From: Patescibacteria group bacterium | GTDB lineage: Bacteria > Patescibacteriota > Patescibacteriia > Magasanikbacterales > GWA2-37-8 | Length of the DNA stretch: 64,000 nt | Assembly (NCBI GenBank): GCA_022710645.1 | Contig: JAKLGL010000001.1 | Location: forward strand, 407,296 to 471,295 | Reading direction: 5' to 3' | Shown here: one piece after another, positions 1,677 to 56,563 of the stretch | How positions within the stretch are numbered: position 1 is the stretch's first letter | How the letters are laid out: each line of letters starts with the position of its first letter | Position numbers and translations under genes: made by a program | Notes under the pieces: model-generated | What the model saw: the letters and a program-made list of their open reading frames with translations, nothing else | Told to the model about the DNA's origin: nothing | The model's database searches: none

Positions 1677-1835
1677 AAACTAAAGCTCTAATCTCTAATT
1701 TCTAATCTCTAAACAAGTTCAAAAATCAAATTTCAAAATTGGATATTTGATATTTGTCCGTCCGTAGTCCAAAGGACGAAGGCGGATTAAATATTGTTTA
1801 GGATTTAGAGCTTAGGATTTAGGGTTTGATATTTT
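1677..1835. repeat. Palindromic intergenic element, TAAGCTCTAA family (member 1), in the divergent promoter region
   Basis: aaagctctaatctctaatttctaatctctaaacaa...gtttaggatttagagcttaggatttagg, with a nested hairpin gtccgtccgtagtccaaaggacgaaggcggat. The same family occurs at 44088-44200 and 52486-52605. Confidence 0.5.
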
Positions 1836-2656: not shown

Positions 2657-3607
2657 ATGAAAAGCACATACGGTAAATTATTTTTGGTTATATTGGTAAC
2701 CGTAACATGTGCGCTTTTCAAAATAGAAGCTGCGTCCGCGCAGCTTTCTATTTCTATCTACCCGCTTTCCTTCAAAGCACAAGTGAATCCGGGAGATACA
2801 TGGAGGGGTAGCGTCACTGTTATCAACCCGAACGATTTTGCCATTTCCGTTCGCCCGGAAAAAGAAAATCTTGTCGGCGGTTCAGAAGGAGAAATTATTT
2901 TAACCGGAGAAACTGATCAAAATTATGGCTTAGCTTCTTGGGTAAAATATGATTCAAACAAAGAAATAATCTTGGCGGCTGGAGAAAGAAGAAAAGTGGA
3001 TTTTTCTTTGATTGTTCCCGCTAACGCTCAACCCGGCGGTCATTATGGAGCTGTTTTATTTCGCGGAACGGAAATAAATAAAAAATCTTCCGGTGAAAGC
3101 GGGCTTGGTGTAGCCGGACGCGTAGGATCAGTAATGCTTTTTGAAGTCAGCGGAGATGTTCAGAAAACCGGTGAAATAAGCTCCCTTGAAACCAAGAAAT
3201 TTATAGCTCACGGACCTATCGATTTGACTTTTAAAGTCAAAAATACCGGTAACACCTTCTTCTTACCAGAAGGTAAAGTGGAATTCAAACATTTTTTCAA
3301 AACTTTTGAAACCACTTGGGAGCCACGCGTAGTATTCCCTGGATACGATAGAACATTCAAGACAAATCTTGATAAAAAATATCTTTTTGGCCCTGTCAAA
3401 GCCACTATTTTGGCAAAAATGAGCGATGGAGCGGAGTTAACTCCGATTTCCGTAACTATTTGGGCTTGGCCTTGGAAAGAAACTTTGGTTCTACTTTGTA
3501 TTATCGTAACACTTTGGTTATTGAAACTTTGGTTGCTTAAAAACTTCAAAATTGTTAAAATAGAGAAAACGGAAAATAAAGACGAAAATAAAAAAGGAGA
3601 TGCCTAA
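2657..3607 (+). CDS. DUF916/DUF3324-like cell-surface protein with a C-terminal transmembrane anchor (CscA-like)
   Basis: It has a signal peptide, an N-terminal LSISIYPLSFKAQVNPGDTWRGSVTVINPNDFAISV beta-domain and a C-terminal TM (LVLLCIIVTLWLLKLWLLKNF) followed by a charged tail. This architecture and its position next to WxL-like genes mirror Csc/WxL loci. Confidence 0.5.
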   Translation: MKSTYGKLFLVILVTVTCALFKIEAASAQLSISIYPLSFKAQVNPGDTWRGSVTVINPNDFAISVRPEKENLVGGSEGEIILTGETDQNYGLASWVKYDSNKEIILAAGERRKVDFSLIVPANAQPGGHYGAVLFRGTEINKKSSGESGLGVAGRVGSVMLFEVSGDVQKTGEISSLETKKFIAHGPIDLTFKVKNTGNTFFLPEGKVEFKHFFKTFETTWEPRVVFPGYDRTFKTNLDKKYLFGPVKATILAKMSDGAELTPISVTIWAWPWKETLVLLCIIVTLWLLKLWLLKNFKIVKIEKTENKDENKKGDA

Positions 3608-4706
3608 ACGATTGTCAAAATCAATCTTTGTGACGCAAGCCTCGAAATATTTCCTTTTGGGGCTTGTGTTTTTATTATTGGCTTTACCAACTTTGGTTTT
3701 AGCCGCCGTAGCCACACAAAATGTCACTATCACCATCAATAACAGTTCTTATCATTGTGCTAATGGTACTCAAGATTATGACGAAACCGGTATTGACTGC
3801 GGAGGGTCTCTTTGCGGAACTTGCGGTTCGCATTGTACAAATGGAATAAAAGATTTTGATGAAGTCGGAGTTGATTGTGGAGGTTCTTTGTGTCCGACTT
3901 GTAGTGGTGGGGGCGGAGGTGGTGGAGGAGGCGGTGGCGGTTCTCTGCCGATTCTCCTTTCTACTATCAATTTTTCCGGAATTGCTTATTCAAACGCCAA
4001 AATATTTATTTTACGCGATGGAATTTTGATTAATACTTTTTTTACCTCATCATCCGGAGCTTTTCAATATTCTTTAAATTCTATTACCGCCGGAAATTAT
4101 CGCTACACTTTTTATGCGCAAGACGCTCGCGGCGGATATTCTACACATTTGGTTTTTCCTCTAACTGTTGTTGCGGGAAACTCTTACCAAGTAAACAATA
4201 TCTTGATTCCGCCAACACTGTATTTCAATTCTCAAGAAATAAAACGCGGAGAAAAAATGGAATTTTACGGTCAAAGTGCGCCGAATTCAATTTTGTTTTT
4301 TGAACTGAAAAATTCAACTTCCGGAAGTACTTCCACCTTTCAAACTATAGCCGATCCTTCAGGAAAATTTTCTTATCTTCTTGAAACTTCCGGAATGATA
4401 GAGGGTAGTTATGAAATAAAAATTAAAATAAAAATTGCAACAACTGAAAGCGCTTACAGTAATTCTTTTCCTTTTTCAATAGGTGCTAAAACCGTAGAAA
4501 AACCGATTTCAACGACAAAATGTCCGGCTAAAGGAGATCTCAACGGCGATTGCCGTGTAAATTTGGTTGATTTCTCTATCGCGGCTTACTGGTATAAACG
4601 CACCGTCGCGTCGAGTTTTATAAATACGGAAAATTCTCAACTTAATGGCGACGATATTATCAATTTGATAGATTTCAGTATTTTGGCTTATTATTGGACG
4701 GGCTGA
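3600..4706 (+). CDS. Secreted dockerin-containing protein with duplicated Cys-rich motif and a poly-Gly linker
   Basis: AAGGAG RBS, overlapping the previous stop by 8 nt. It has a signal peptide, the repeats DYDETGIDCGGSLCGTCG and DFDEVGVDCGGSLCPTCSG, and G12 (nt 3905-3945). The C-terminus has two dockerin-type Ca-binding repeats, DLNGDCRVNLVDFSIAAYWY and LNGDDIINLIDFSILAYYW (the DxNxDxxxNxxD pattern). Confidence 0.7.
   Translation: MPKRLSKSIFVTQASKYFLLGLVFLLLALPTLVLAAVATQNVTITINNSSYHCANGTQDYDETGIDCGGSLCGTCGSHCTNGIKDFDEVGVDCGGSLCPTCSGGGGGGGGGGGGSLPILLSTINFSGIAYSNAKIFILRDGILINTFFTSSSGAFQYSLNSITAGNYRYTFYAQDARGGYSTHLVFPLTVVAGNSYQVNNILIPPTLYFNSQEIKRGEKMEFYGQSAPNSILFFELKNSTSGSTSTFQTIADPSGKFSYLLETSGMIEGSYEIKIKIKIATTESAYSNSFPFSIGAKTVEKPISTTKCPAKGDLNGDCRVNLVDFSIAAYWYKRTVASSFINTENSQLNGDDIINLIDFSILAYYWTG
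3901..3948 (+). repeat. Imperfect (GGN)n simple repeat encoding poly-Gly
   Basis: ggtggtgggggcggaggtggtggaggaggcggtggcggt lies inside the dockerin protein gene. Confidence 0.8.
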
Positions 4707-4749
4707 TGAAGTTAGAAGTTTATAAAGTTTATAAAGTTATAAAGTTGAT
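4707..4749 (+). repeat. Tandem AGTTTATAA / AACTTTATAAAGTT-type palindromic 9-nt repeats abutting the start codon
   Basis: gaagttagaagtttataaagtttataaagttataaagttgatATG. Confidence 0.6.
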
Positions 4750-7888: not shown

Positions 7889-8137
7889 TTTGTAAAATAA
7901 TTTTAATCTAAAATCTTAAATCAAAAATCTAAAATCGCTTCGCTTTAACGAAGAGTACCCTGTGCATAACTCTCTTGCAACTATTTCATTATTTTGCAAA
8001 AGCATTTATAATAAAGATAGGTCGAGTTTTTTATAACATGCTTGTCTATAAAAAATTACAAAACATTTTTTCTTGCGATCGCAAGATGAAAAAATATTTC
8101 ATACATAATCTCAAAAAAGAAAGGGGGTGCGCACAAT

Positions 8138-8245
8138 ATGAAAAAGAAAGCTACAAAAAAAATCGTGAAAAAAGCTAAAAAAGTAGTTAAGAAAGTAAAA
8201 AAAGTTGCTAAAAAGAAAGTTGCTAAAAAAGGCAAAAAGAAATAG
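8138..8245 (+). CDS. Lysine-rich 35-aa micro-protein (MKKKATKKIVKKAKKVVKKVKKVAKKKVAKKGKKK), not in the ORF track
   Basis: GGGGGTG RBS 9 nt upstream. It is a clean ORF of near-tandem KKV/KKA units, followed by a terminator hairpin (acacttcgc-tttaat-gcgaggtgt then a T-run) at about 8262-8300. Confidence 0.5.
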   Translation: MKKKATKKIVKKAKKVVKKVKKVAKKKVAKKGKKK

Positions 8246-14124: not shown

Positions 14125-14190
14125 TTTTAATTTAAAGCTAAACTATAATACCATATCATTGATTTTTTTCGCAAGATATGATAACTTAGT

Positions 14191-14254
14191 CTATAAAGTC
14201 AAAAGTCTTTAAAGTCCATCAAGTCGCGACTTTACAGACTTTATAGATTATTTT
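14191..14254 (+). repeat. Array of concatenated AGTC...GACT palindromes abutting the tgt start codon
   Basis: agtctataaagtc aaa agtctttaaagtcc atca agtcgcgactt tacag actttatagatta ATG. Confidence 0.6.
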
Positions 14255-25078: not shown

Positions 25079-25254
25079 GACTTCCTCCTTGTTTTTTAAT
25101 AAAAGGTACGATAACGGCATATTATAGCACATTTTAGCCTTTTTGTCAATACCTTAATTTAGCTAATATAAGCCAAAATATTTCTTTGTTGCTCTGCCTG
25201 CCGGCAGGCAGATTTACTGCTTTTTAGCTTCCCTATCTTGACTTTTTCTCTAAA

Positions 25255-28215: not shown

Positions 28216-28258
28216 ATGAAAAAGCTTATAAGCTAATAAGCAGATAAGTAAAAATATT

Positions 28259-29648: not shown

Positions 29649-29745
29649 GTCATTCTGAGTGGATACGAAGAACCTGCCTGCCGGCAGGCAGGTCTGCAAT
29701 AAGCAATTATCCTATTTACAGATCCTTCACTGCGTTCAGGATGAC
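29649..29745. repeat. GTCAT...ATGAC mini-element (member 2) containing the CCTGCCTGCCGGCAGGCAGG palindrome
   Basis: gtcattctgagtggatacgaagaacctgcctgccggcaggcaggtctgcaataagcaattatcctatttacagatccttcactgcgttcaggatgac is alignable with the 43346-43423 member. Confidence 0.6.
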
Positions 29746-29750
29746 AAATC

Positions 29751-29797
29751 GCGAACTTTATAAACTTTCAACTTTATAACTTTAAAAACTTTATCCT
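29751..29797 (+). repeat. Tandem AACTTTATAA-type repeats abutting the start codon
   Basis: cgcgaactttataaactttcaactttataactttaaaaactttatcctATG. Confidence 0.6.
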
Positions 29798-30511: not shown

Positions 30512-30554
30512 AATCATCTCAGCCGCTCAAGGTGGCTCGCTATGACTTTATGAA

Positions 30555-30570
30555 CCTGCCTGCCGGCAGG
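30555..30570. repeat. Third copy of the CCTGCCTGCCGGCAGG palindrome
   Basis: tgaacctgcctgccggcaggtaggc; the other copies are at 25193-25212 and 29673-29692. Confidence 0.7.
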
Positions 30571-30599
30571 TAGGCTTTATAAACTTTTAACTAACAAAT

Positions 30600-42562: not shown

Positions 42563-42780
42563 ATTTTACAAAATTATTAAAAAATAAATAAAAAAACACA
42601 CTTTTGGTGTGTTAAGAGCCATTTTATAGGCGGTACCATCTTAACTTTAACTTAATTTATTAGCTGTTACGGGCTATCCCGAAAGAGTCTATTTTTCGCT
42701 AAAATAAGCGAATTTCTTTCTCCAACGCCCCAAAAAGGATCCTTGTTGATGACAAGTAATAGCGTTTTTAAGTTATTTTA
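42563..42780 (-). promoter_or_regulatory. Probable T-box riboswitch leader of ileS
   Basis: On the minus strand: AAGATGGTACCGCC (compare the T-box AGGGUGGUACCGCG; the UGGU bulge matches discriminator A). It is followed by the terminator acacac-caaaag-gtgtgt then T7, 35 nt before the ATG. An AUCA candidate specifier and a GGAGAAAGA sequence lie upstream. Confidence 0.5.
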
Positions 42781-42808: not shown

Positions 42809-42860
42809 AACTGGCAAATGTATAAATAAAATTGCCAAAACCACTCAAATTCTATATAAT

Positions 42861-42892
42861 AACAATACTTTATAACTTTATAACTTTCAATT
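42861..42892 (+). repeat. Tandem ACTTTATAA repeats upstream of rpiB
   Basis: taacaatactttataactttataactttcaattgtgcttATG. Confidence 0.55.
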
Positions 42893-43336: not shown

Positions 43337-43345
43337 AATTTTACT

Positions 43346-43423
43346 GTCATCCTGAGCCATAGGCGAAGGATCTGCAAGTAAGATAATTGCTTATTACAGA
43401 TTCTTCACTTCGTTGAGAATGAC
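43346..43423. repeat. GTCAT...ATGAC mini-element (member 3)
   Basis: gtcatcctgagccataggcgaaggatctgcaagtaagataattgcttattacagattcttcacttcgttgagaatgac. Confidence 0.6.
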
Positions 43424-43433
43424 AAAAACAAAT

Positions 43434-44087
43434 ATGAAAAATTACTTAGTTCCGGCCATATTGGTAAAAAATTTTTCCGATTTAAAATTGCAGATAAAAA
43501 AAGTGCAAAAAGTTTTTCCACTTGTGCAAATAGATATCTGCGACAATCTTTTTGTCAAAAATAGAACTTTCAAAGAACGGTTGGAAATAAACAAACTTCA
43601 TCTCCCCTGTCGATTGGAATTGCATTTGATGGTAAAAAATCCTGAAAAAGAATTAAAAAAATGGGAAAAAGTAAAAAAGGTGTTTCGTGTATATATTCAT
43701 GCTGAAACCTTAAAAAATAATTTTGAAAAAATATTAAACATCATACAGAAAAACGGCTGGCAATTGGGCTTGGCACTAAATCCGGAAACCAAAACGCAAA
43801 AAATACAAAAATATTTAGACAAAATCGATGCTGTACTGTTTATGACCGTACATCCGGGGATCCAAGGACAAAAATTGATTCCGCAAATATTGAAAAAAAT
43901 AAAATCTTTTAAAAAACCACAAAAACTTTTGGTTGCAGCCGACGGCGGAATAACTTTGGACAATATCAAACAATTAAAAAAATCCGGAGTAAAGGAATTT
44001 TGTATAGGGAAAAGATTGGTGATGGCAGAAGATATTAAAAAAACTTTAAGAGAATTTAACAAACTAATTAAAAACCCTAATTCCTAA
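43434..44087 (+). CDS. rpe: Ribulose-phosphate 3-epimerase
   Basis: PAIL..., DICDN, HLMV and MTVHPGIQGQK...AADGGI. The start at 43434 falls after the repeat element. Confidence 0.75.
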   Translation: MKNYLVPAILVKNFSDLKLQIKKVQKVFPLVQIDICDNLFVKNRTFKERLEINKLHLPCRLELHLMVKNPEKELKKWEKVKKVFRVYIHAETLKNNFEKILNIIQKNGWQLGLALNPETKTQKIQKYLDKIDAVLFMTVHPGIQGQKLIPQILKKIKSFKKPQKLLVAADGGITLDNIKQLKKSGVKEFCIGKRLVMAEDIKKTLREFNKLIKNPNS

Positions 44088-44200
44088 GCTCTAAATTCTA
44101 AACAATATTTAATACTTAATATCCAATATCTAAAAACTTTTTATAATTTAAATATTTGAATTTTGACATTGTTTAGAGATTAGAAATTAGTGCTTAGAAT
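44088..44200. repeat. Palindromic intergenic element, TAAGCTCTAA family (member 2)
   Basis: ctaagctctaaattctaaacaatat...attgtttagagattagaaattagtgcttagaat. Confidence 0.55.
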
Positions 44201-44216
44201 ATTATATAAAAAATTT

Positions 44217-45170
44217 ATGTTAGACTTAATCATCATCGGAGGTTCCGCTGCCGGTTGTAGCGCAGCTATTTATGCGGCTCGCAGAAAATTAAATTTTAAA
44301 ATTATCACTCACGATATCGGAGGAGAAGTTGTTTATGCTGGCGAAGTAAAAAATTGGTTGGGAAACAAAAGTATTTACGGTTATGATTTAGCGCAAAACT
44401 TTGCCGATCATGTCCGCGATTACGGCGTAGAAATCGAGGAGGGCTGGAAAGTTTATTCTATTGAAAAAGAAAAGTCAGGTTTTACTGTTAAAACCAGAAA
44501 CAATAAAGGCGAGGAAAGAAAAGAATTGGCCAAAACCGTACTTATTGCGACAGGTATTCATCCACGACATCTTGGTGCTAACAATGAAGAAGAACTATTT
44601 CACAAAGGTATCACCTATTGCACGGTTTGCGATGGACCACTATTCAAAAATAAAACTGTGGCCGTGCTTGGCGGTGGAAATGCCGCATTGGAAGCCGCGG
44701 TAATGATGAGTAGTATTGCACAAAAAGTTTACTTGATGACCATAGAACCGGACACGGCTGAAAAAAAATTCGGCTTTCCGACCGGAGATGATGTTTTGAT
44801 TGAAAAAGTAAAATCTTTGCCAAATGTGGAAATCATTCATTATGCCAACACTTATGAATTTGTCGGAGAAAATAAATTGACTGGTTTGAAATATCGCGAT
44901 TTACGCGATGGAAAAAATGAAGAAAAAGAATTAGCAATAGAAGGCGCGATGATTCATGTTGGTATGGTGCCAAATTCCGATTTTATCGATATTGTAGAAA
45001 AAGATAGAGCTAAACAAATTATAGTTGACCGCCATCAACAAACATCTGTCCCGGGAATTTTTGCCGCCGGTGACGTTACAGATTTGCCTTATAAACAAAT
45101 TATTGTCGCCGCGGGACAAGGCACAGCAGCCGCTCTTTCCGCCATTGAATACCTTAATAAACTTAAATAA
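44217..45170 (+). CDS. trxB: Thioredoxin-disulfide reductase-like FAD/NAD(P) oxidoreductase
   Basis: DLIIIGGSAAG, the redox CTVCDG, GGGNAALEAA and GIFAAGDV. Confidence 0.75.
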   Translation: MLDLIIIGGSAAGCSAAIYAARRKLNFKIITHDIGGEVVYAGEVKNWLGNKSIYGYDLAQNFADHVRDYGVEIEEGWKVYSIEKEKSGFTVKTRNNKGEERKELAKTVLIATGIHPRHLGANNEEELFHKGITYCTVCDGPLFKNKTVAVLGGGNAALEAAVMMSSIAQKVYLMTIEPDTAEKKFGFPTGDDVLIEKVKSLPNVEIIHYANTYEFVGENKLTGLKYRDLRDGKNEEKELAIEGAMIHVGMVPNSDFIDIVEKDRAKQIIVDRHQQTSVPGIFAAGDVTDLPYKQIIVAAGQGTAAALSAIEYLNKLK

Positions 45171-45270
45171 TTTACAATTTTCAATTTAAAATTTTCATTG
45201 AATTTTCAATCACCGTTTTATCATTGATCATTCATTAAAAATTGAAAACTGAAAATTAAAAATTCTTATT

Positions 45271-45558
45271 ATGTCTCTTCCTCTCTTCGATATAATACTC
45301 AACGTACTCGCAGGATTAGGAGCCATCTTAATCACCTACGCCGTTTTTTTGGAACACGAAACTCGACAAGACATTGTCTTGGCTATTGGCGCTTTTTGTT
45401 TACTCGTTTACGCTCTCTGGATAGGTAATGCTATTTTTGCTTTAGCTATGGGCGGAGTATTCTTGGCTAGCATGGTTGAGTTTGTAGAAATACTTGTCGG
45501 TATTCACGATCCAATCGGGGCCAGTAAAACAAGTACTAATAACAAACCAAAGGAATAA
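45271..45558 (+). CDS. Small membrane protein
   Basis: Three hydrophobic helices, 95 aa. Confidence 0.5.
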   Translation: MSLPLFDIILNVLAGLGAILITYAVFLEHETRQDIVLAIGAFCLLVYALWIGNAIFALAMGGVFLASMVEFVEILVGIHDPIGASKTSTNNKPKE

Positions 45559-45590: not shown

Positions 45591-46577
45591 ATGTATAATT
45601 TACTTACTATTGGCGATGCGGTTGTAGACAATCATATAATCTTGGATGAAGCGGAAGTGGAATGTAATGTTGATAAAAAAACCTGCCGTTTATGCCTTGA
45701 TTATGCTGCCAAAGTGCCAGTTAGCGAAAGCTTTCAAAACATTGGCGGTAATGCTGTAAACACAGCTATTGGGGCCAGCAAACTCGGTCTAAATACTGCT
45801 ATTTTAACCGACTTGGGAAAAGACGCTAACGGTAAAACGGTTATTTCTGAACTCAAAAAATACGGCGTGGACACAAAACTGATTAAACTAAATCCAAAAA
45901 ACGAAACTCGTTTCGCTATTGTTCTCAATTACAAAGGCGAACGCACTATTTTATCATCTCATAAAAAGAAAGTATATTCCTGGCCGACAATATTACCAAA
46001 AACCGATTGGATTTATTATACTTCCCTATCCGATGGTTTTGAAACATTACAAAAAAATCTTTTCGCCCATCTCAAAAAACATCCGACCGTTCGTTTAGTT
46101 TATAATCCCGGATCTTTTCAATTAAAAAATTCTCTGAGCAGTGTTTTGGAAACAATCAAAAAATCTGACATTTTAATCGTTAATTTGCAAGAAGCGGAAA
46201 CTATCTTGAATACGACTTTGCAAAAAGAAAAAAGCATGGCCACTATTATTCATAAACTTCTTGCTCTAGGTGCCAAAGAGGTGGTGATAACCGATGCGGA
46301 AAAAGGCGCTTATGCGGGAAGCGTGGAAGAAGTTTGGTATATGCCTTCCTTCCCTGTTCAAGTCATAGCCAAAACCGGCGCCGGCGATGCATTTTCTTCC
46401 GGATATATTTCCGCCAGACAATATGATCACGATATCGCCGATGCTTTACTCTGGGGCATTGCCAACAGTTGTAGTGTTATCAGCAGTTTCGGTTCACATG
46501 CGAAGTTGTTGGAAAAAGGAAACATTACAAACTATATTAAAAAGCACAGCGAAATTCAACCTAAAAAGATAGCATAA
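45591..46577 (+). CDS. PfkB-family carbohydrate (ribokinase-like) kinase
   Basis: GGNAVNTAIGASKLGL and AKTGAGDAFSSGY. Confidence 0.8.
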   Translation: MYNLLTIGDAVVDNHIILDEAEVECNVDKKTCRLCLDYAAKVPVSESFQNIGGNAVNTAIGASKLGLNTAILTDLGKDANGKTVISELKKYGVDTKLIKLNPKNETRFAIVLNYKGERTILSSHKKKVYSWPTILPKTDWIYYTSLSDGFETLQKNLFAHLKKHPTVRLVYNPGSFQLKNSLSSVLETIKKSDILIVNLQEAETILNTTLQKEKSMATIIHKLLALGAKEVVITDAEKGAYAGSVEEVWYMPSFPVQVIAKTGAGDAFSSGYISARQYDHDIADALLWGIANSCSVISSFGSHAKLLEKGNITNYIKKHSEIQPKKIA

Positions 46578-47919: not shown

Positions 47920-47975
47920 GTTTTCTAGACTTTATGGACTTTATAAACTTTACGAACTTTATGAACTTCAGGTTT
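47920..47975 (-). repeat. Tandem AGTYYATAA repeats abutting the start of the SpoU-family gene
   Basis: Minus strand: agttcataaagttcgtaaagtttataaagtccataaagtctagaaaaATG. Confidence 0.6.
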
Positions 47976-52466: not shown

Positions 52467-52485
52467 ATTGAAAAAATTTAAGCTC

Positions 52486-52605
52486 TAATTTCTAACCCCT
52501 AAACAATATATAAGTCCAAATATTTAATCGCAAAATTTAGATATTGGATATTAAATATTGAATATTGTTTATGATTTAGAACTTAGGATTTAAGATTTAA
52601 TTACA
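52486..52605. repeat. Palindromic intergenic element, TAAGCTCTAA family (member 3)
   Basis: taagctctaatttctaacccctaaacaatat...gatattggatat...attgtttatgatttagaacttaggatttaag. Confidence 0.55.
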
Positions 52606-52687
52606 CTTATCTTACCAATAAACTTCAAAAAAATCAACTAAAAAAGCCCGCTTATAGCGGACTTTTTTAGGCTTATTTAAGCAAAAT

Positions 52688-55600
52688 TTATTTTTTAAAA
52701 CCTGTACCGGCCGGAATGAGACGACCGATGATAACGTTTTCTTTGAGACCTTCCAAATAATCAATTTTACCGGTAATCGCGGTATTGATAAGAACGCGAG
52801 CGGTTTCTTGAAAAGAAGCTGAGGAAAGAAAACTTTGTGTAGATAAAGAAACACGAGAAATACCCAATAACAATTCTCTAGCTGTTGCTTCTTTACCGCC
52901 TTCTTTTTTGGCTTGGTTATTGCAAAATTCCAAATGAGCTTTTTCTACAACTTCACCCGGTAAAAGCTCGGTGTCACCGGCATCTTCCACATATACACGA
53001 CTAAACATTTGACGAATAATAACTTCCATATGTTTATCGTTAACTTTCTGACCTTGAGAAGAATAGATATTTTGCACTTCTTCCAAAATATACTTTTGCA
53101 CCGCAGGACGTCCTTTAAGTTCGAACAATTCTTGTAAATGAATAGAACCATCGGTTAGTTGGTCGCCTTTTAGCACTTCATCTCCGGTTTTTACATACAA
53201 TTTATAACCTAGCGGCACGATATATTCGCGAACACGCGGTCCGTTGTACGATAAACGAATTTTGTTTTTTTCTATTTTTACTTGTCCGGCATATTTGGCT
53301 TTAATTTCTTCACCGGAAGAACCGCGAACCACTAATACCGTATCCTGTTCCACTATTTCGTCATTTTTTACCATAACTTCATCTTCACTTCCTGTGCTGA
53401 TTTTCATTTCATCCATACCTTCAAAATGGACTTTGATGATTTTTTGTCCGCGACGACCTTCAAAAATCTTTTTTCCCGTAGGAGAAGTGATGATTTTTCC
53501 ATCCGCATCTTCAATTTCCACTTTGCCTTCTACATCGGTAAGCAAAGCTTGATGTTTCGGAGTGCGTACTTCAAAAATTTCTTCGATACGAGGCAAACCT
53601 TGAGTAATATCAGACCCTGCCACACCACCGGTATGGAAAGTACGAAGTGTCAACTGGGTACCAGGTTCACCGATACTTTGAGCGGCAATAATACCGACCG
53701 AAGCGCCAAGCTCTGCGGGTTTATTATAAGATAAATCATATCCGTAACATTTTTGACAAACACCTTTTGGACATTTGCACTTGAAAACCGAACGAACATG
53801 GATAGATTCTACTTTATTTTTATCTATTTCACGAGCGGATTTTTCATCAATAACCTCTCCGGCTTTTACAATCACTTTATTGCCGATTTTTACATCTTCC
53901 ACTACATAACGACCGACAACTCTATCTGCTAATTTTTCACCCATTTCCGCTGATTGAGCCAAAGTAAATACTTCGCCCTCTTTAGCCCCGCAATCTTCTT
54001 CCAACACTACTACGTCTTGAGCCACATCCACCAAACGACGAGTCAAATAGCCGGCGCCAGATGTACGCAAAGCAGTATCGGACAAACCTTTACGAGTACC
54101 GTGAGAAGAAATAAAGTATTCCAAAGAGTCAAAACCTTCCTTAAAGTTTCCTTTTACCGGAAGTTCAATAATGTCGCCAGACGGAGAAGCAACCAAACCT
54201 TTCATACCGATAACCTGACCCAACTGTCCCCAAGAACCGCGAGCGCCTGATTCAATCATAGCATAAACCGGGCCTTCTTTATCCAAAGCCTCTCTGACAT
54301 TGGTAGAAATGATTTTATCTTTTACTTCAGTCCAAATTTCCAATATCTTGGCATGTTTTTCACCTTGAGTGAGCAAACCTTCGTTGCGTAAATTTTCAAC
54401 TTCGCGAACTTTGGCATCACTTTCTTTGAGCAAAGCCGTTTTCTCTTCTATTTTCGGAAAGTTATTCATACTCAAAGAATATCCGGATTTGGTTGCGTAT
54501 TTGAAACCAAGATTTTTCAAATCATCCAAAAAAGCGGCAGTTTTTTCTTGACCGTAAATTTCCAAATAAGAAGAGATAATTCCTCCGAGTTTTTTAACAG
54601 TTATAACATCGTTTACAAAATTAATTTCATCCGGCAACACTTCGTTGAAAATAATACGTCCAATGGTTGTTTCCATCAACGGAGTGGTTCCTTCCAGAAA
54701 TTTCTTCATATCTGTAAAACGCACTTTTATTTTTTCATGCAAAGTTATGATACGTGACTTGTAAGCAAACAAAGCTTCTTTTTCAGATGAAAAATAACGC
54801 ATGTTTTTATTTTCTCTGTTTTCACGAAGATGTGTCAAATAAAAACAGCCAAGCACAATATCTTGTTTCGGAGTTACAACCGGTTGTCCGGTAGCGGGTT
54901 TCAAAATATTTTTCTCTGCAGCCATCAAATTGTCCGCTTCCCAACGAGCTTCCACGGTAAGCGGTAAATGCACAGCCATTTGATCGCCATCAAAGTCGGC
55001 ATTAAAAGCGGTACAAACCAAAGGATGTAATTGAATAGCACTACCTTCGATAAGACGAGGGTGGAAAGCTTGAATACCCAAACGGTGCAAGGTCGGAGCG
55101 CGATTAAGCAATACACGGGTTTTTTTGGTTAATTCTTCCAATATATCCCAAACTTCATCACGTTCACTTTCTATAAAACGATTGGCGGAACGAACATTGT
55201 GAGCCAATTCCATTTTAATAATTTCCGCCATTATAAACGGTTTAAATAATTCCAAAGCCATTCTTTTTGGTAAACCGCATTCATCCAAATTCAAATTCGG
55301 ACCGACAACGATAACCGAACGACCGGAATAATCCACACGTTTACCGAGTAAATTTTGACGGAAACGTCCTTGTTTACCTTTCAAGATATCAGCCAAGGAG
55401 CGCAATTGTCTTTTTTGACCGGTAGAAGCAGTCACGGTTTTGGCATGACGAGCATTATTATCAATAAGCGCATCAACAGCTTCTTGTAACATACGTTTTT
55501 CATTTCTGCAGATAACTTCCGGAGCATTTAATTCTAACAACCTTTCCAAACGATTATTACGATTAATAACGCGACGATACAAATCGTTCAAATCCGAAGT

Positions 55601-56563
55601 TGCAAAACGACCTCCATCAAGAGCGACCATCGGACGTAAATCAGGAGGAACGACAGGTAAACATTTCATAATCATCCATTCCGGACGAATATTGTTGACG
55701 ATTAAATTTTTCAACAATTTTTTGCGACGAATAATTTTTTCCAATTTTGCGCCTTTGGCTGTTTGTTGTTCTTGACTTAAAGTTTTATAAGTTTCTTCCA
55801 AGTTTACACGAGAAAGTAAATTATAAACTCCTTCAGCGCCGATTTGCGCTTCAAACAAATGACCGTAACGCAAAGAAAGTTCTTGATATTTTTGTTCAGA
55901 GATAATACGCAACAAAGTCAATTCTTTGAGTTCTTTGTCAGCTTGTTGAAAATCTGATTCCAGGGCTGACATTTTGCGAGTACCTTCTTCTTGAATTTTT
56001 TCCAGAATTTCGGCTTTTTGTTTTTCGTCATTGGCCTTTTTGATAGCGACTTCTGTTTCTTTTTCGATTTGTTTTTTCTTTGATTTATATTCTTGACGCA
56101 ACAAATCAAAAGTTTGTTTTTTACCTTCATCATCCACGTGCGTAATGACAAAAGAAGCAAAATAAACCACTTTTTCCAAAGCTTGAGGACTCAAATCTAA
56201 CACCAAACCAACTTTACTCGGAACCGATCTCAAAAACCAAATATGAGTAACCGGAGTGGCTAATTCTATATGTCCCATGCGTTCGCGACGAACCAAAGAA
56301 GTTGTAACTTCGACTCCGCATTTATCACAAACAATTCCTTTATAACGAATCTTTTTATATTTTCCACAGTAACATTCCCAATCTTTGGTAGGTCCAAAAA
56401 TTTCTTCGGCAAACAAACCGCCTTTTTCCGGTTTTTGAGTACGATAATTAATGGTTTCCGGTTTGCGCACTTCGCCGTGCGACCAGCTGCGAATAGCTTC
56501 CGGAGAAGCGATTTTCAGACGAATCGCGTCAAAGTCGATGACATTGGTGGTATTGCGATACAT
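52688..56563 (-). CDS. rpoC: DNA-directed RNA polymerase subunit beta'
   Basis: Zn-binding CGVEV..., NADFDGDQM, 1291 aa. Confidence 0.97.
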   Translation of the reverse strand: MYRNTTNVIDFDAIRLKIASPEAIRSWSHGEVRKPETINYRTQKPEKGGLFAEEIFGPTKDWECYCGKYKKIRYKGIVCDKCGVEVTTSLVRRERMGHIELATPVTHIWFLRSVPSKVGLVLDLSPQALEKVVYFASFVITHVDDEGKKQTFDLLRQEYKSKKKQIEKETEVAIKKANDEKQKAEILEKIQEEGTRKMSALESDFQQADKELKELTLLRIISEQKYQELSLRYGHLFEAQIGAEGVYNLLSRVNLEETYKTLSQEQQTAKGAKLEKIIRRKKLLKNLIVNNIRPEWMIMKCLPVVPPDLRPMVALDGGRFATSDLNDLYRRVINRNNRLERLLELNAPEVICRNEKRMLQEAVDALIDNNARHAKTVTASTGQKRQLRSLADILKGKQGRFRQNLLGKRVDYSGRSVIVVGPNLNLDECGLPKRMALELFKPFIMAEIIKMELAHNVRSANRFIESERDEVWDILEELTKKTRVLLNRAPTLHRLGIQAFHPRLIEGSAIQLHPLVCTAFNADFDGDQMAVHLPLTVEARWEADNLMAAEKNILKPATGQPVVTPKQDIVLGCFYLTHLRENRENKNMRYFSSEKEALFAYKSRIITLHEKIKVRFTDMKKFLEGTTPLMETTIGRIIFNEVLPDEINFVNDVITVKKLGGIISSYLEIYGQEKTAAFLDDLKNLGFKYATKSGYSLSMNNFPKIEEKTALLKESDAKVREVENLRNEGLLTQGEKHAKILEIWTEVKDKIISTNVREALDKEGPVYAMIESGARGSWGQLGQVIGMKGLVASPSGDIIELPVKGNFKEGFDSLEYFISSHGTRKGLSDTALRTSGAGYLTRRLVDVAQDVVVLEEDCGAKEGEVFTLAQSAEMGEKLADRVVGRYVVEDVKIGNKVIVKAGEVIDEKSAREIDKNKVESIHVRSVFKCKCPKGVCQKCYGYDLSYNKPAELGASVGIIAAQSIGEPGTQLTLRTFHTGGVAGSDITQGLPRIEEIFEVRTPKHQALLTDVEGKVEIEDADGKIITSPTGKKIFEGRRGQKIIKVHFEGMDEMKISTGSEDEVMVKNDEIVEQDTVLVVRGSSGEEIKAKYAGQVKIEKNKIRLSYNGPRVREYIVPLGYKLYVKTGDEVLKGDQLTDGSIHLQELFELKGRPAVQKYILEEVQNIYSSQGQKVNDKHMEVIIRQMFSRVYVEDAGDTELLPGEVVEKAHLEFCNNQAKKEGGKEATARELLLGISRVSLSTQSFLSSASFQETARVLINTAITGKIDYLEGLKENVIIGRLIPAGTGFKK

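Follow-up and report, generated by a model that had tools for sequence, protein, structure and literature searches.

A stretch of 64,000 nt from the genome of Candidatus Magasanikbacteria (contig JAKLGL010000001.1; genome G+C 36%), hereafter called the window, was found to carry five tandem arrays of a unit of about 9 nt, each of them placed directly before a start codon. In total, 82.6 kb of the source genome sequence was covered. The arrays are real and non-random. They belong to a family of small, fast-evolving tandem and hairpin repeats that is common to Patescibacteria and Bacteroidota and is not a gene-specific regulatory site. We tentatively favour the view that such arrays arise by slippage and fold-back in DNA that tolerates them, an explanation that leaves several properties of the family unaccounted for.

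Arrays before five start codons

The five arrays and their sequences are listed in Table 1. In a search for chains of at least four AAGTY cores at a spacing of 7-10 nt, four of the loci were recovered, while 300 dinucleotide-preserving shuffles gave none. The array before rpiB is a shorter, fifth one, with 2.6 units of 8 nt. When a two-unit pattern was scanned with one mismatch allowed, 10 matches were found against 0.34 expected. The window was also scanned in an unbiased manner, by ranking all array-forming 5-mers. AAAGT/ACTTT ranked top after AAAAT/ATTTT, and the arrays of the family were confined to the five named loci, with the exception of one three-copy chain inside an open reading frame (ORF).

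All five arrays end 3-14 nt before an ATG, in agreement with the placement against start codons that had been described, and this adjacency has a P of ~3e-5 under random placement in the 6.9 kb of intergenic DNA of the window. The genes that follow code for a signal-peptide protein, tgt, a thymidylate-kinase-family protein (tmk), rpiB and a SpoU methyltransferase. They have no common function, and the identities previously assigned to the last four proved correct. No Shine-Dalgarno (SD) site was found upstream of any of the five. Since only 5 of the 51 window genes have an SD-like site, this absence is the rule in the window and not a peculiarity of the array genes; T occupies position -1 in 80% of the starts and A position -12 in 68%. 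The suspicion that the organism is poor in SD sequences was therefore borne out, and the remark that the arrays leave no room for an SD site is true but describes nothing special.

An assembly or sequencing artefact was ruled out, as the sequence is identical across ENA, JGI and Logan assemblies. Two independent assemblies of 21 kb match the window exactly across both the array of the signal-peptide gene (the 4707 array) and that of tgt. The tgt array is also covered by two shorter assemblies, which are identical there, and the rpiB array is identical in five independent assemblies. No copy-number polymorphism was detected among these four and five same-strain assemblies, nor between two pairs of near-identical relatives. 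At the level of assemblies, a phase-variable contingency repeat was rejected, given that the units are heterogeneous and the arrays identical in the four and five assemblies.

Alignment of the units on their AAGT core gave the consensus TAAAGTYYR, which is the earlier AGTYYATAA read in another phase. Units follow each other with a period of 9 in 72-88% of the spacings of two wider unit sets and in 10 of 15 spacings in the window; the remaining periods are 8 or 7. The TAAAGT core is conserved, and transitions account for most of the variation at the last three positions (Y, Y, R). Solo direct repeats make up four of the five window arrays, with AAGT on the sense strand at 4709 and 47928 and ACTT at 29754 and 42867. 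The array before tgt is the sole true inverted one and is laid out as (AAGTC)n followed by (GACTT)n. The perfect palindromes that had been read from overlapping units were mostly not recovered. AACTTTATAAAGTT is not present in the window, which holds in its place only the one-mismatch direct-repeat forms AAGTTTATAAAGTT and AACTTTATAAACTT, and AGTCTTTAAAGTCC is not its own reverse complement. AAGTCGCGACTT (14221-14232), at the centre of the tgt array, is the only perfect palindrome among those quoted.

As RNA, the solo arrays are AU-rich and show no structure (z near 0). The 4707 array, which fills the 43-nt spacer between an upstream stop codon (TGA, 4704-4706) and the ATG of the signal-peptide gene, was essentially unstructured (-5.6 kcal/mol, z -1.1), and so was the tmk array (-1.3 kcal/mol), which is probably intercistronic within a dTMP-synthesis operon. 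The tgt array gave an RNA hairpin of -22.2 kcal/mol (z -5.8), whose arms differ from each other by whole units. None of the window arrays has the GC-rich stem and U tract at a gene 3' end that characterize an intrinsic terminator, since the only array hairpin is AU-rich and lies between promoter and ATG, and the solo arrays are unfolded.

Promoters were read from the sequence upstream of two arrays, with predicted transcription starts. The predicted start of rpiB lies near 42867, the first base of the array, and the predicted leader consists of the array plus the next 9 nt. In the case of tgt, the promoter directly abuts the array and transcription is predicted to start within the first unit. 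The tgt promoter block 'cattgattttttt(c)cgcaagatatga' is conserved in 8 relatives, with TGGTATAAA as the -10 box in one of them (L139). As both promoters are conserved across species, the rpiB and tgt arrays most likely form part of the 5' leader, which supports the earlier proposal of arrays within transcribed leaders. A consensus promoter scan revealed no convincing promoter upstream of the tmk or SpoU arrays. A promoter inside the arrays, with TAAAGT or TATAAA as -10 box on inspection by eye, was discarded because a 9-nt period yields no usable spacing between -35 and -10.

Table 1. Position and sequence of the window arrays, related repeats and promoters
Feature	Position	Strand	Sequence	Remarks
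Solo array, signal-peptide gene, 5 units	4709-4746	+	AAGTTAG AAGTTTATA AAGTTTATA AAGTTATA AAGTTGAT	ATG 4750
Inverted array (hairpin), tgt	14188-14249	+	left arm AGTCTATAA AGTCAAA AGTCTTTAA AGTCCATCA AGTCG; centre AAGTCGCGACTT; right arm GACTTTACA GACTTTATA GATT	ends 5 nt before ATG 14255
Solo array, tmk, 5 units	29754-29794	+	AACTTTATA AACTTTC AACTTTATA ACTTTAAA AACTTTAT	sense ACTTT; stops 3 nt short of ATG 29798
Short solo array, rpiB, period 8	42867-42889	+	ACTTTATA ACTTTATA ACTTTCA	ATG 42899
Solo array, SpoU methyltransferase, 5 units	47928-47968	-	GAAGTTCATA AAGTTCGTA AAGTTTATA AAGTCCATA AAGTC	SpoU-sense AAGT; stops 8 nt short of ATG 47919
Three-copy chain	55780-55805		AAGTT/AGTTT	inside ORF 52688-56563
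Weak interrupted member	30544-30591	+	GACTTTATGAAC + CTTTATAAACTTTTAAC around GC palindrome CCTGCCTGCCGGCAGGTAGG	below array-detection threshold; stops 8 nt short of ATG 30600
Variant array	28222-28253	+	AAGCTTAT AAGCTAAT AAGCAGAT AAGTAAAA	5 nt before ATG 28259, thymidylate synthase
Promoter, rpiB	42832-42860	+	TTGCCA-17 nt-TATAAT	kept in L127 and L129
Predicted promoter, tgt	14159-14187	+	TTGATT-17 nt-TG-n-TAACTT	abuts tgt array

Turnover between species and spread across phyla

The orthologous sites were compared in related species, which share 78-90% amino-acid identity in tgt and 82-89% in a pfkB-family kinase (45591-46577) with which the rpiB-SpoU region was probed. A simple longest-ORF caller defined where genes begin and end in the retrieved loci. 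In three species, that of the window included, an array in ACTTT orientation was always found between the conserved -10 box of rpiB and its ATG. Its form differs from one species to another: ACTTTATA repeated 2.6 times, AACTTTYA repeated four times, and an extra small hairpin together with ACTTTTG repeated twice. At tgt, a leader hairpin occupies the matching place in 6 of 8 species. It is built of TAAAGTC/GACTTTA in three, of TAAAGTT/AACTTTA in two and of the unrelated unit ATACKAAT/ATTMGTAT in one (-36 kcal/mol, z -6.3). The other two species have no array, and one of these sites holds two tandem 'seed' copies of ATACCAAT. Most of the 8 species retain the tgt promoter as well as the 'TTATTTT-ATG' context. 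No array was present at the orthologous SpoU position in L129, and another repeat, ATTTTAGATTT, stands before the L138 orthologue of the 4750 gene. The leader positions are thus hotspots for small tandem and palindromic repeats, whose filling turns over rapidly and need not consist of the nonamer.

A second array unit, AATCT(A/T)A(A) with complement AGATT, is present in the window at 920-958 and 7905-7936 and in L138 at 1-25, where it takes the place of the nonamer array upstream of the 4750 orthologue; it was also seen in Ignavibacteria and Bacteroidales loci. In L139, a GIY-YIG endonuclease gene (2635-2907) occupies the spacer that matches the window's 4707-4749 array, a further sign of an insertion-tolerant site.

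In order to place the unit in a wider context, an exact scan for three consecutive TAAAGTYNN units was run with one genome per species. It gave at least 120 stretches, and the taxonomic picture is therefore a sample and not a census. Among the matches listed, about 60% came from Bacteroidota, Ignavibacteria or other members of the FCB group and about 30% from Patescibacteria of many classes, with very few Firmicutes or Proteobacteria. The unit logo is identical in the Patescibacteria and Bacteroidota sets, and AAAGT arrays were still the commonest array type in the Patescibacteria loci after the ascertained matches had been masked. The module is consequently not genome-specific, contrary to what had been supposed, the same nonamer being found in dozens of species of both groups.

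Among the matches listed, every inverted pair of the family had the polarity (TAAAGTY)n-loop-(RACTTTA)n, in 18 of 18 strict and 28 of 28 relaxed cases. Of 112 solo arrays, again among the matches listed, 50 abut a gene within 20 nt on the AAGT strand's 5' side and 11 on the other side. The feature abutted on the AAGT 5' side was a gene end in 36 of these matches and a gene start in 14. Where an array borders a gene end, its first AGT frequently lies over the stop codon or right behind it. The stop-codon context was considered as the seed and discarded: TAA-AGT was found to follow only 2 of 158 stop codons, and the hexamer is under-represented outside arrays.

Members of the family also occur outside protein-gene spacers. 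Two TAAAGTY/RACTTTA insertion hairpins (3137-3208 and 3524-3600) were found in the 16S rRNA gene of a Magasanikiibacteriota (L030), the second of which can be read as an insertion at the tip of helix 44, and another one in the 23S rRNA gene of a Campbellbacteria genome (L080, 1043-1094). Arrays lie beside tRNA and tmRNA genes as well. An in-frame array in uvrA (K-V-x, frame read by eye) encodes HKVSKVNKVHKV, and in one locus (L120) arrays flank a canonical GC-rich terminator stem. Many contigs of Bacteroidota and Ignavibacteria break inside arrays, which implies many copies per genome. In viral contigs 87 matches were obtained, mostly perfect generic 9-mer repeats and often K-V coding repeats of giant viruses; only about ten were of the heterogeneous YYR type, and they say little about spread. 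A literature search with the literal repeat sequences found no paper that mentions them.

The hairpins of the family have stabilities of -12 to -70 kcal/mol. Their pairs are nearly all Watson-Crick with few G-U pairs, and the summed fold energy was -627 kcal/mol for the sense and -587 kcal/mol for the antisense strand. The scarcity of G-U pairs and the near-equal folding of both strands fit an origin at the DNA level.

Origin and role of the arrays

The closest precedent is the set of direct repeats of the heptamer TAACTGA in marine Beggiatoaceae, in Cyanobacteria and in some Bacteroidetes (MacGregor 2015, PMC4679880). These are tandem direct repeats of 2 to more than 40 copies and almost all intergenic; in the genome of BOGUAY, the majority end a few nt before starts that lack a ribosome-binding site (RBS), and some overlap the upstream stop codon (PMC4679880). 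The downstream genes share no function, the distribution is patchy and cross-phylum, and contigs break in the arrays; S1, Csp and CsrA were proposed as binders, the function being untested, and the work of Mrazek on long simple sequence repeats (LSSRs) is cited there (PMC4679880). The nonamer arrays share with these repeats the intergenic position, the abutment to starts without RBS, the overlap with stop codons, the cross-phylum distribution that includes Bacteroidetes and the contig breaks. As in repeats of the TAACTGA and LSSR type, the tandem unit is at most ~11 nt, occurs in intergenic DNA far above chance and lies near RBS-less starts of genes without shared function. In contrast, the nonamer unit has 9 nt and not 7, contains the variable YYR and carries a stop codon in one frame and not in all three. 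It often forms inverted pairs of one polarity, whereas a single inverted case was reported for TAACTGA, and it is found in Patescibacteria and inside rRNA genes. The BOGUAY repeats are mostly 'forward' with respect to the start, whereas orientation is mixed here, with two AAGT arrays, two ACTT arrays and one that has both in the window.

Other repeat classes resemble the arrays in part. LSSRs, cyanobacterial STRR heptamers and mycobacterial MIRU are short-unit intergenic or intercistronic tandem repeats thought to be born by slippage. MIRU lie between the stop and start codons of operon genes and have translatable units of 40-100 bp, and the LSSRs of pathogens are perfect repeats and phase-variable. 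The nonamer units, unlike these, are imperfect, and the tgt, 4707 and rpiB arrays do not differ among independent assemblies. REP, BIME and REPIN sequences and the Rickettsia palindromic elements are hairpin doublets of fixed internal polarity, extragenic beside stop codons, and those of Rickettsia are inserted in coding sequence, where they keep the frame, and in RNA genes as well. In these elements the sequence is conserved over its full length, and REPs have a RAYT transposase of their own, whereas the nonamer arrays keep a 6-nt core only, vary in their arms by whole units and have no associated gene that could be found. 'Cryptically simple' expansion segments and compensatory slippage were reportedly described by Hancock and Dover in eukaryotic rRNA, where helices evolve by slippage without loss of pairing. 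Helices with two arms of tandem motifs and their complements are likewise seen here in the 16S and 23S insertions and in mRNA leaders, but compensatory slippage concerns eukaryotic rRNA and not bacterial intergenic DNA, and has no single preferred unit. The nonamer arrays fail defining features of the LSSR/STRR/MIRU, REP/REPIN/Rickettsia and compensatory-slippage classes. They are short intergenic start-abutting tandem repeats of SD-poor bacteria, with several unexplained properties.

The explanation that we tentatively prefer, and that falls a little short of being probable, is that the arrays are AT-rich minisatellites of TAAAGTYYR, produced by slippage and fold-back, that fill tolerated DNA at gene borders. 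Replication slippage would make and remodel the arrays through gain and loss of units, and fold-back (inverted) duplication would produce the hairpin form. Arrays would persist where a compact genome is free to vary: in the transcribed leader, from the -10 box or transcription start up to a point 3-14 nt short of the ATG, and, for the family at large, also in the stretch that starts at a stop codon. If the DNA that is free to vary is limited to the leader, the start adjacency in the window is explained. The turnover, the whole-unit differences between arms, the series from seed to hairpin at tgt and the occurrence in any tolerated place all point to local slippage and fold-back. The arrays would be transcribed within the mRNA. 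A solo array would then give an unstructured A/U-rich leader lacking either G or C, which is compatible with the SD-independent initiation used by ~90% of genes, and the paired tgt array would give a stem-loop at or near the mRNA 5' end. No sequence-specific regulator would be required, and the array genes would not constitute a regulon.

Several observations weigh against slippage and fold-back. The TAAAGT core and its transition-prone triplet are identical in the window, in Patescibacteria and in Bacteroidota, and TAAAGT is not over-represented outside the arrays (28 observed, 45 expected); neutral slippage from random seeds would not predict one unit in at least ~100 species. The single polarity of the inverted pairs and the polar abutment of solo arrays to coding boundaries, both described above for the matches listed, are not explained by simple slippage any more than the cross-phylum core is. 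Selection instead of tolerance could account for the persistence of arrays in the rpiB and tgt leaders of different species. In addition, the identical copy number among independent assemblies means that high slippage rates are not demonstrated.

Alternatively, the arrays could be selected translation leaders, in which an unstructured AU-rich landing pad for S1, a cold-shock-type protein or ribosome standby would raise or tune SD-independent initiation at the adjacent ATG. This is unlikely, though quite conceivable. The distance of 3-14 nt to the ATG in all five cases, the SD-poor host and the lack of structure in solo arrays agree with it, as does the ACUUU orientation kept before rpiB in three species. 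An equivalent proposal was made for the TAACTGA repeats (PMC4679880). The orientation in the window is nevertheless mixed, gene ends are abutted more than starts among the matches listed, and the stable tgt hairpin should hinder 30S binding; two tgt orthologues and one SpoU orthologue have no array, and most window genes, including rpoB and rpoC, start without one, as does the gene called recA in L144. The ACUUU orientation resembles the epsilon enhancer UUAACUUUA of phage T7 gene 10, which acts together with an SD site, and AU-rich S1-dependent enhancers are known. Arrays in ACUUUA orientation are, like epsilon, AU-rich, unstructured and upstream of the start, but half of the arrays point the other way, and the 16S rRNA of a relative (L030) offers no native complement: it contains TAAAGT and ACTTTA solely within the insertion hairpins. 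The 16S 3' end of this related Magasanikiibacteriota carries the canonical anti-SD sequence GGATCACCTCCTTTCT, to which the unit is not complementary, and this speaks against an SD-type RBS as well. A sequence-specific translation enhancer, as first suggested, is possible but unsupported, considering that arrays face genes both ways and that gene ends are favoured family-wide. For the solo arrays, which give AU-rich RNA without structure, a leader role of a permissive or slightly helpful kind is possible. A role of the hairpins as RNA is clearly improbable, whether they were to stabilise mRNA at its 5' or 3' end, to serve as RNase III sites or to act as weak bidirectional terminators or insulators, with solo arrays as their decayed halves. 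Of the five window arrays, four lack a partner arm and are unfolded, hairpins lie between divergent starts and inside rRNA genes, where termination would harm, there is no strand-specific G-U signature, and the genome has ordinary terminators with GC stem and U tract. These points outweigh the stability of the hairpins, the tgt hairpin in 6 of 8 species with its concerted changes from AAGTC/GACTT to AAGTT/AACTT in both arms, the polarity that puts the ACUUUA arm 3' on either strand as in intrinsic terminators, the arrays around a terminator stem in L120 and the many family members that begin right behind stop codons. Most improbable of all is an operator, where a dimeric or multimeric protein would bind the repeats and co-regulate the downstream genes, as the preliminary description had also considered. 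The promoter-proximal position, the short repeated units and the conserved 6-bp core would suit such a site, but the arrays lie downstream of the -10 box and not over -35/-10, a 9-bp period does not keep to the helical phase, the genes behind the arrays have unrelated functions, and the same arrays are present at gene 3' ends, in rRNA genes, in coding sequence and across phyla. Orthologous leaders hold other units or copy numbers, an unrelated hairpin or nothing, which is strong evidence against a sequence-specific operator. A transcription-factor regulon was rejected, as the motif is neither kept at orthologous promoters nor restricted to linked genes.

An unlikely but serious candidate is a propagated sequence-specific element, for which a trans-acting activity, common to Patescibacteria and Bacteroidota or exchanged between them, would make or spread the arrays. 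REP/RAYT-like or MITE-like (miniature inverted-repeat transposable element) transposition, or the outward addition of units to a palindromic seed by a polymerase or recombinase, could be envisaged. Such an activity would accommodate the single core with variable triplet in two distant phyla, the absolute polarity of the inverted pairs, the polar anchoring at coding boundaries with the first AGT often over the stop codon, and a hexamer that is not enriched outside arrays. The insertions in rRNA genes and coding sequence, similar to those of Rickettsia palindromic elements, and the copy number implied by contig breaks in Bacteroidota and Ignavibacteria point in the same direction. On the other hand, all-against-all BLASTP of 488 neighbouring ORFs found no mobile-element gene beside the arrays and no protein family at more than four loci. 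The 6-nt core alone is conserved, and not a full-length sequence in many copies as in MITEs or REPINs; no conserved loop or terminal sequence was found beyond the unit itself, with arm lengths varying by whole units. At the tgt orthologues, no clean pair of filled and empty sites with target duplication was seen, and a different unit gives the same architecture. When units were compared along arrays as a test of polar growth, the identical fraction was 0.26 at the outermost and 0.13 at the innermost junction (n=53), a weak gradient and no clear sign of unit age, and the taxonomic picture relies on the at least 120 stretches of the scan. It can also be speculated, as a rather unlikely proposal, that the arrays are the footprint of an undescribed sequence-specific process in Patescibacteria and Bacteroidota, phyla largely without SD pairing. 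This process would build polar, outward-growing palindromic minisatellites that end exactly at coding boundaries (stop codons, start regions and tRNA ends) and at rRNA helix tips. A nucleic-acid enzyme dedicated to it could be its agent, or else a factor from the machinery of translation or RNA decay that binds the repeats.

Recognition of the nonamer family would improve the annotation of Patescibacteria and Bacteroidota genomes, in which assemblers break at the arrays. The arrays illustrate how 5' leaders and the spacers between cistrons turn over where ultra-small genomes do without SD pairing, and the solo and hairpin forms represent a natural set of leaders for the study of SD-independent initiation. 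No ordinary explanation accounts for the conserved core, for the single polarity or for arrays that abut stop codons exactly. Were a specific enzyme or binding factor behind them, this would be new bacterial genome biology common to two large phyla.

Other repeats and leaders in the window

A dispersed family of hairpins of 110-150 nt was observed in the window (1684-1832, 44086-44192 and 52478-52606) and in L129 (1513-1631 and 12324-12483). These have heptamer-array arms (CTCTAAT... / ...TTAGAG) around a conserved core (CTAAACAAT...ATATTGTTTAG) and fold with -14 to -45 kcal/mol. The copies can be aligned between loci and species, with a full-length sequence conserved in many copies, which gives them, in contrast to the nonamer arrays, the look of genuine REP- or MITE-like elements. 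An AT-only hairpin with AATTTTCA / TGAAAATT repeats (45168-45272; -15 kcal/mol, z -2.4) lies between trxB and the next gene. In intercistronic spacers, long hairpins of the form GTCATYCTGAG...GAAGRATC...CTCAGGATGAC recur (29650-29745 and 43345-43412), as does the GC palindrome CCTGCCTGCCGGCAGGCAGG (25195-25215 and 30555-30574). One of these intercistronic hairpin elements is directly beside the tmk array.

For four tgt homologues (P0005, P0006, P0008 and P0010), the public gene calls exceed the window protein by 25-37 residues, which could be attributed to a gene caller reading in frame through the upstream array or leader. Several -10 boxes of the window are only 0-14 nt from an ATG (for example 48074 and 37639), which suggests leaderless mRNAs or very short leaders.

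At gathering thresholds, Rfam gave one tRNA only over the window, and the same tRNA was found by ARAGORN. A weak but full-length match to the T-box leader (18.9 bits, E 0.034, model positions 1-219) was obtained on the minus strand at 42611-42779, upstream of an isoleucyl-type tRNA synthetase gene, with GGTACCGCC followed by a terminator stem. The T-box-like region and the promoter and array of rpiB occupy one spacer of 330 nt. Finally, the ORF at 8133-8245 encodes a very lysine-rich peptide, MKKKATKKIVKKAKKVVKKVKKVAKKKVAKKGKKK, and is preceded by one of the few purine-rich SD-like stretches of the window.

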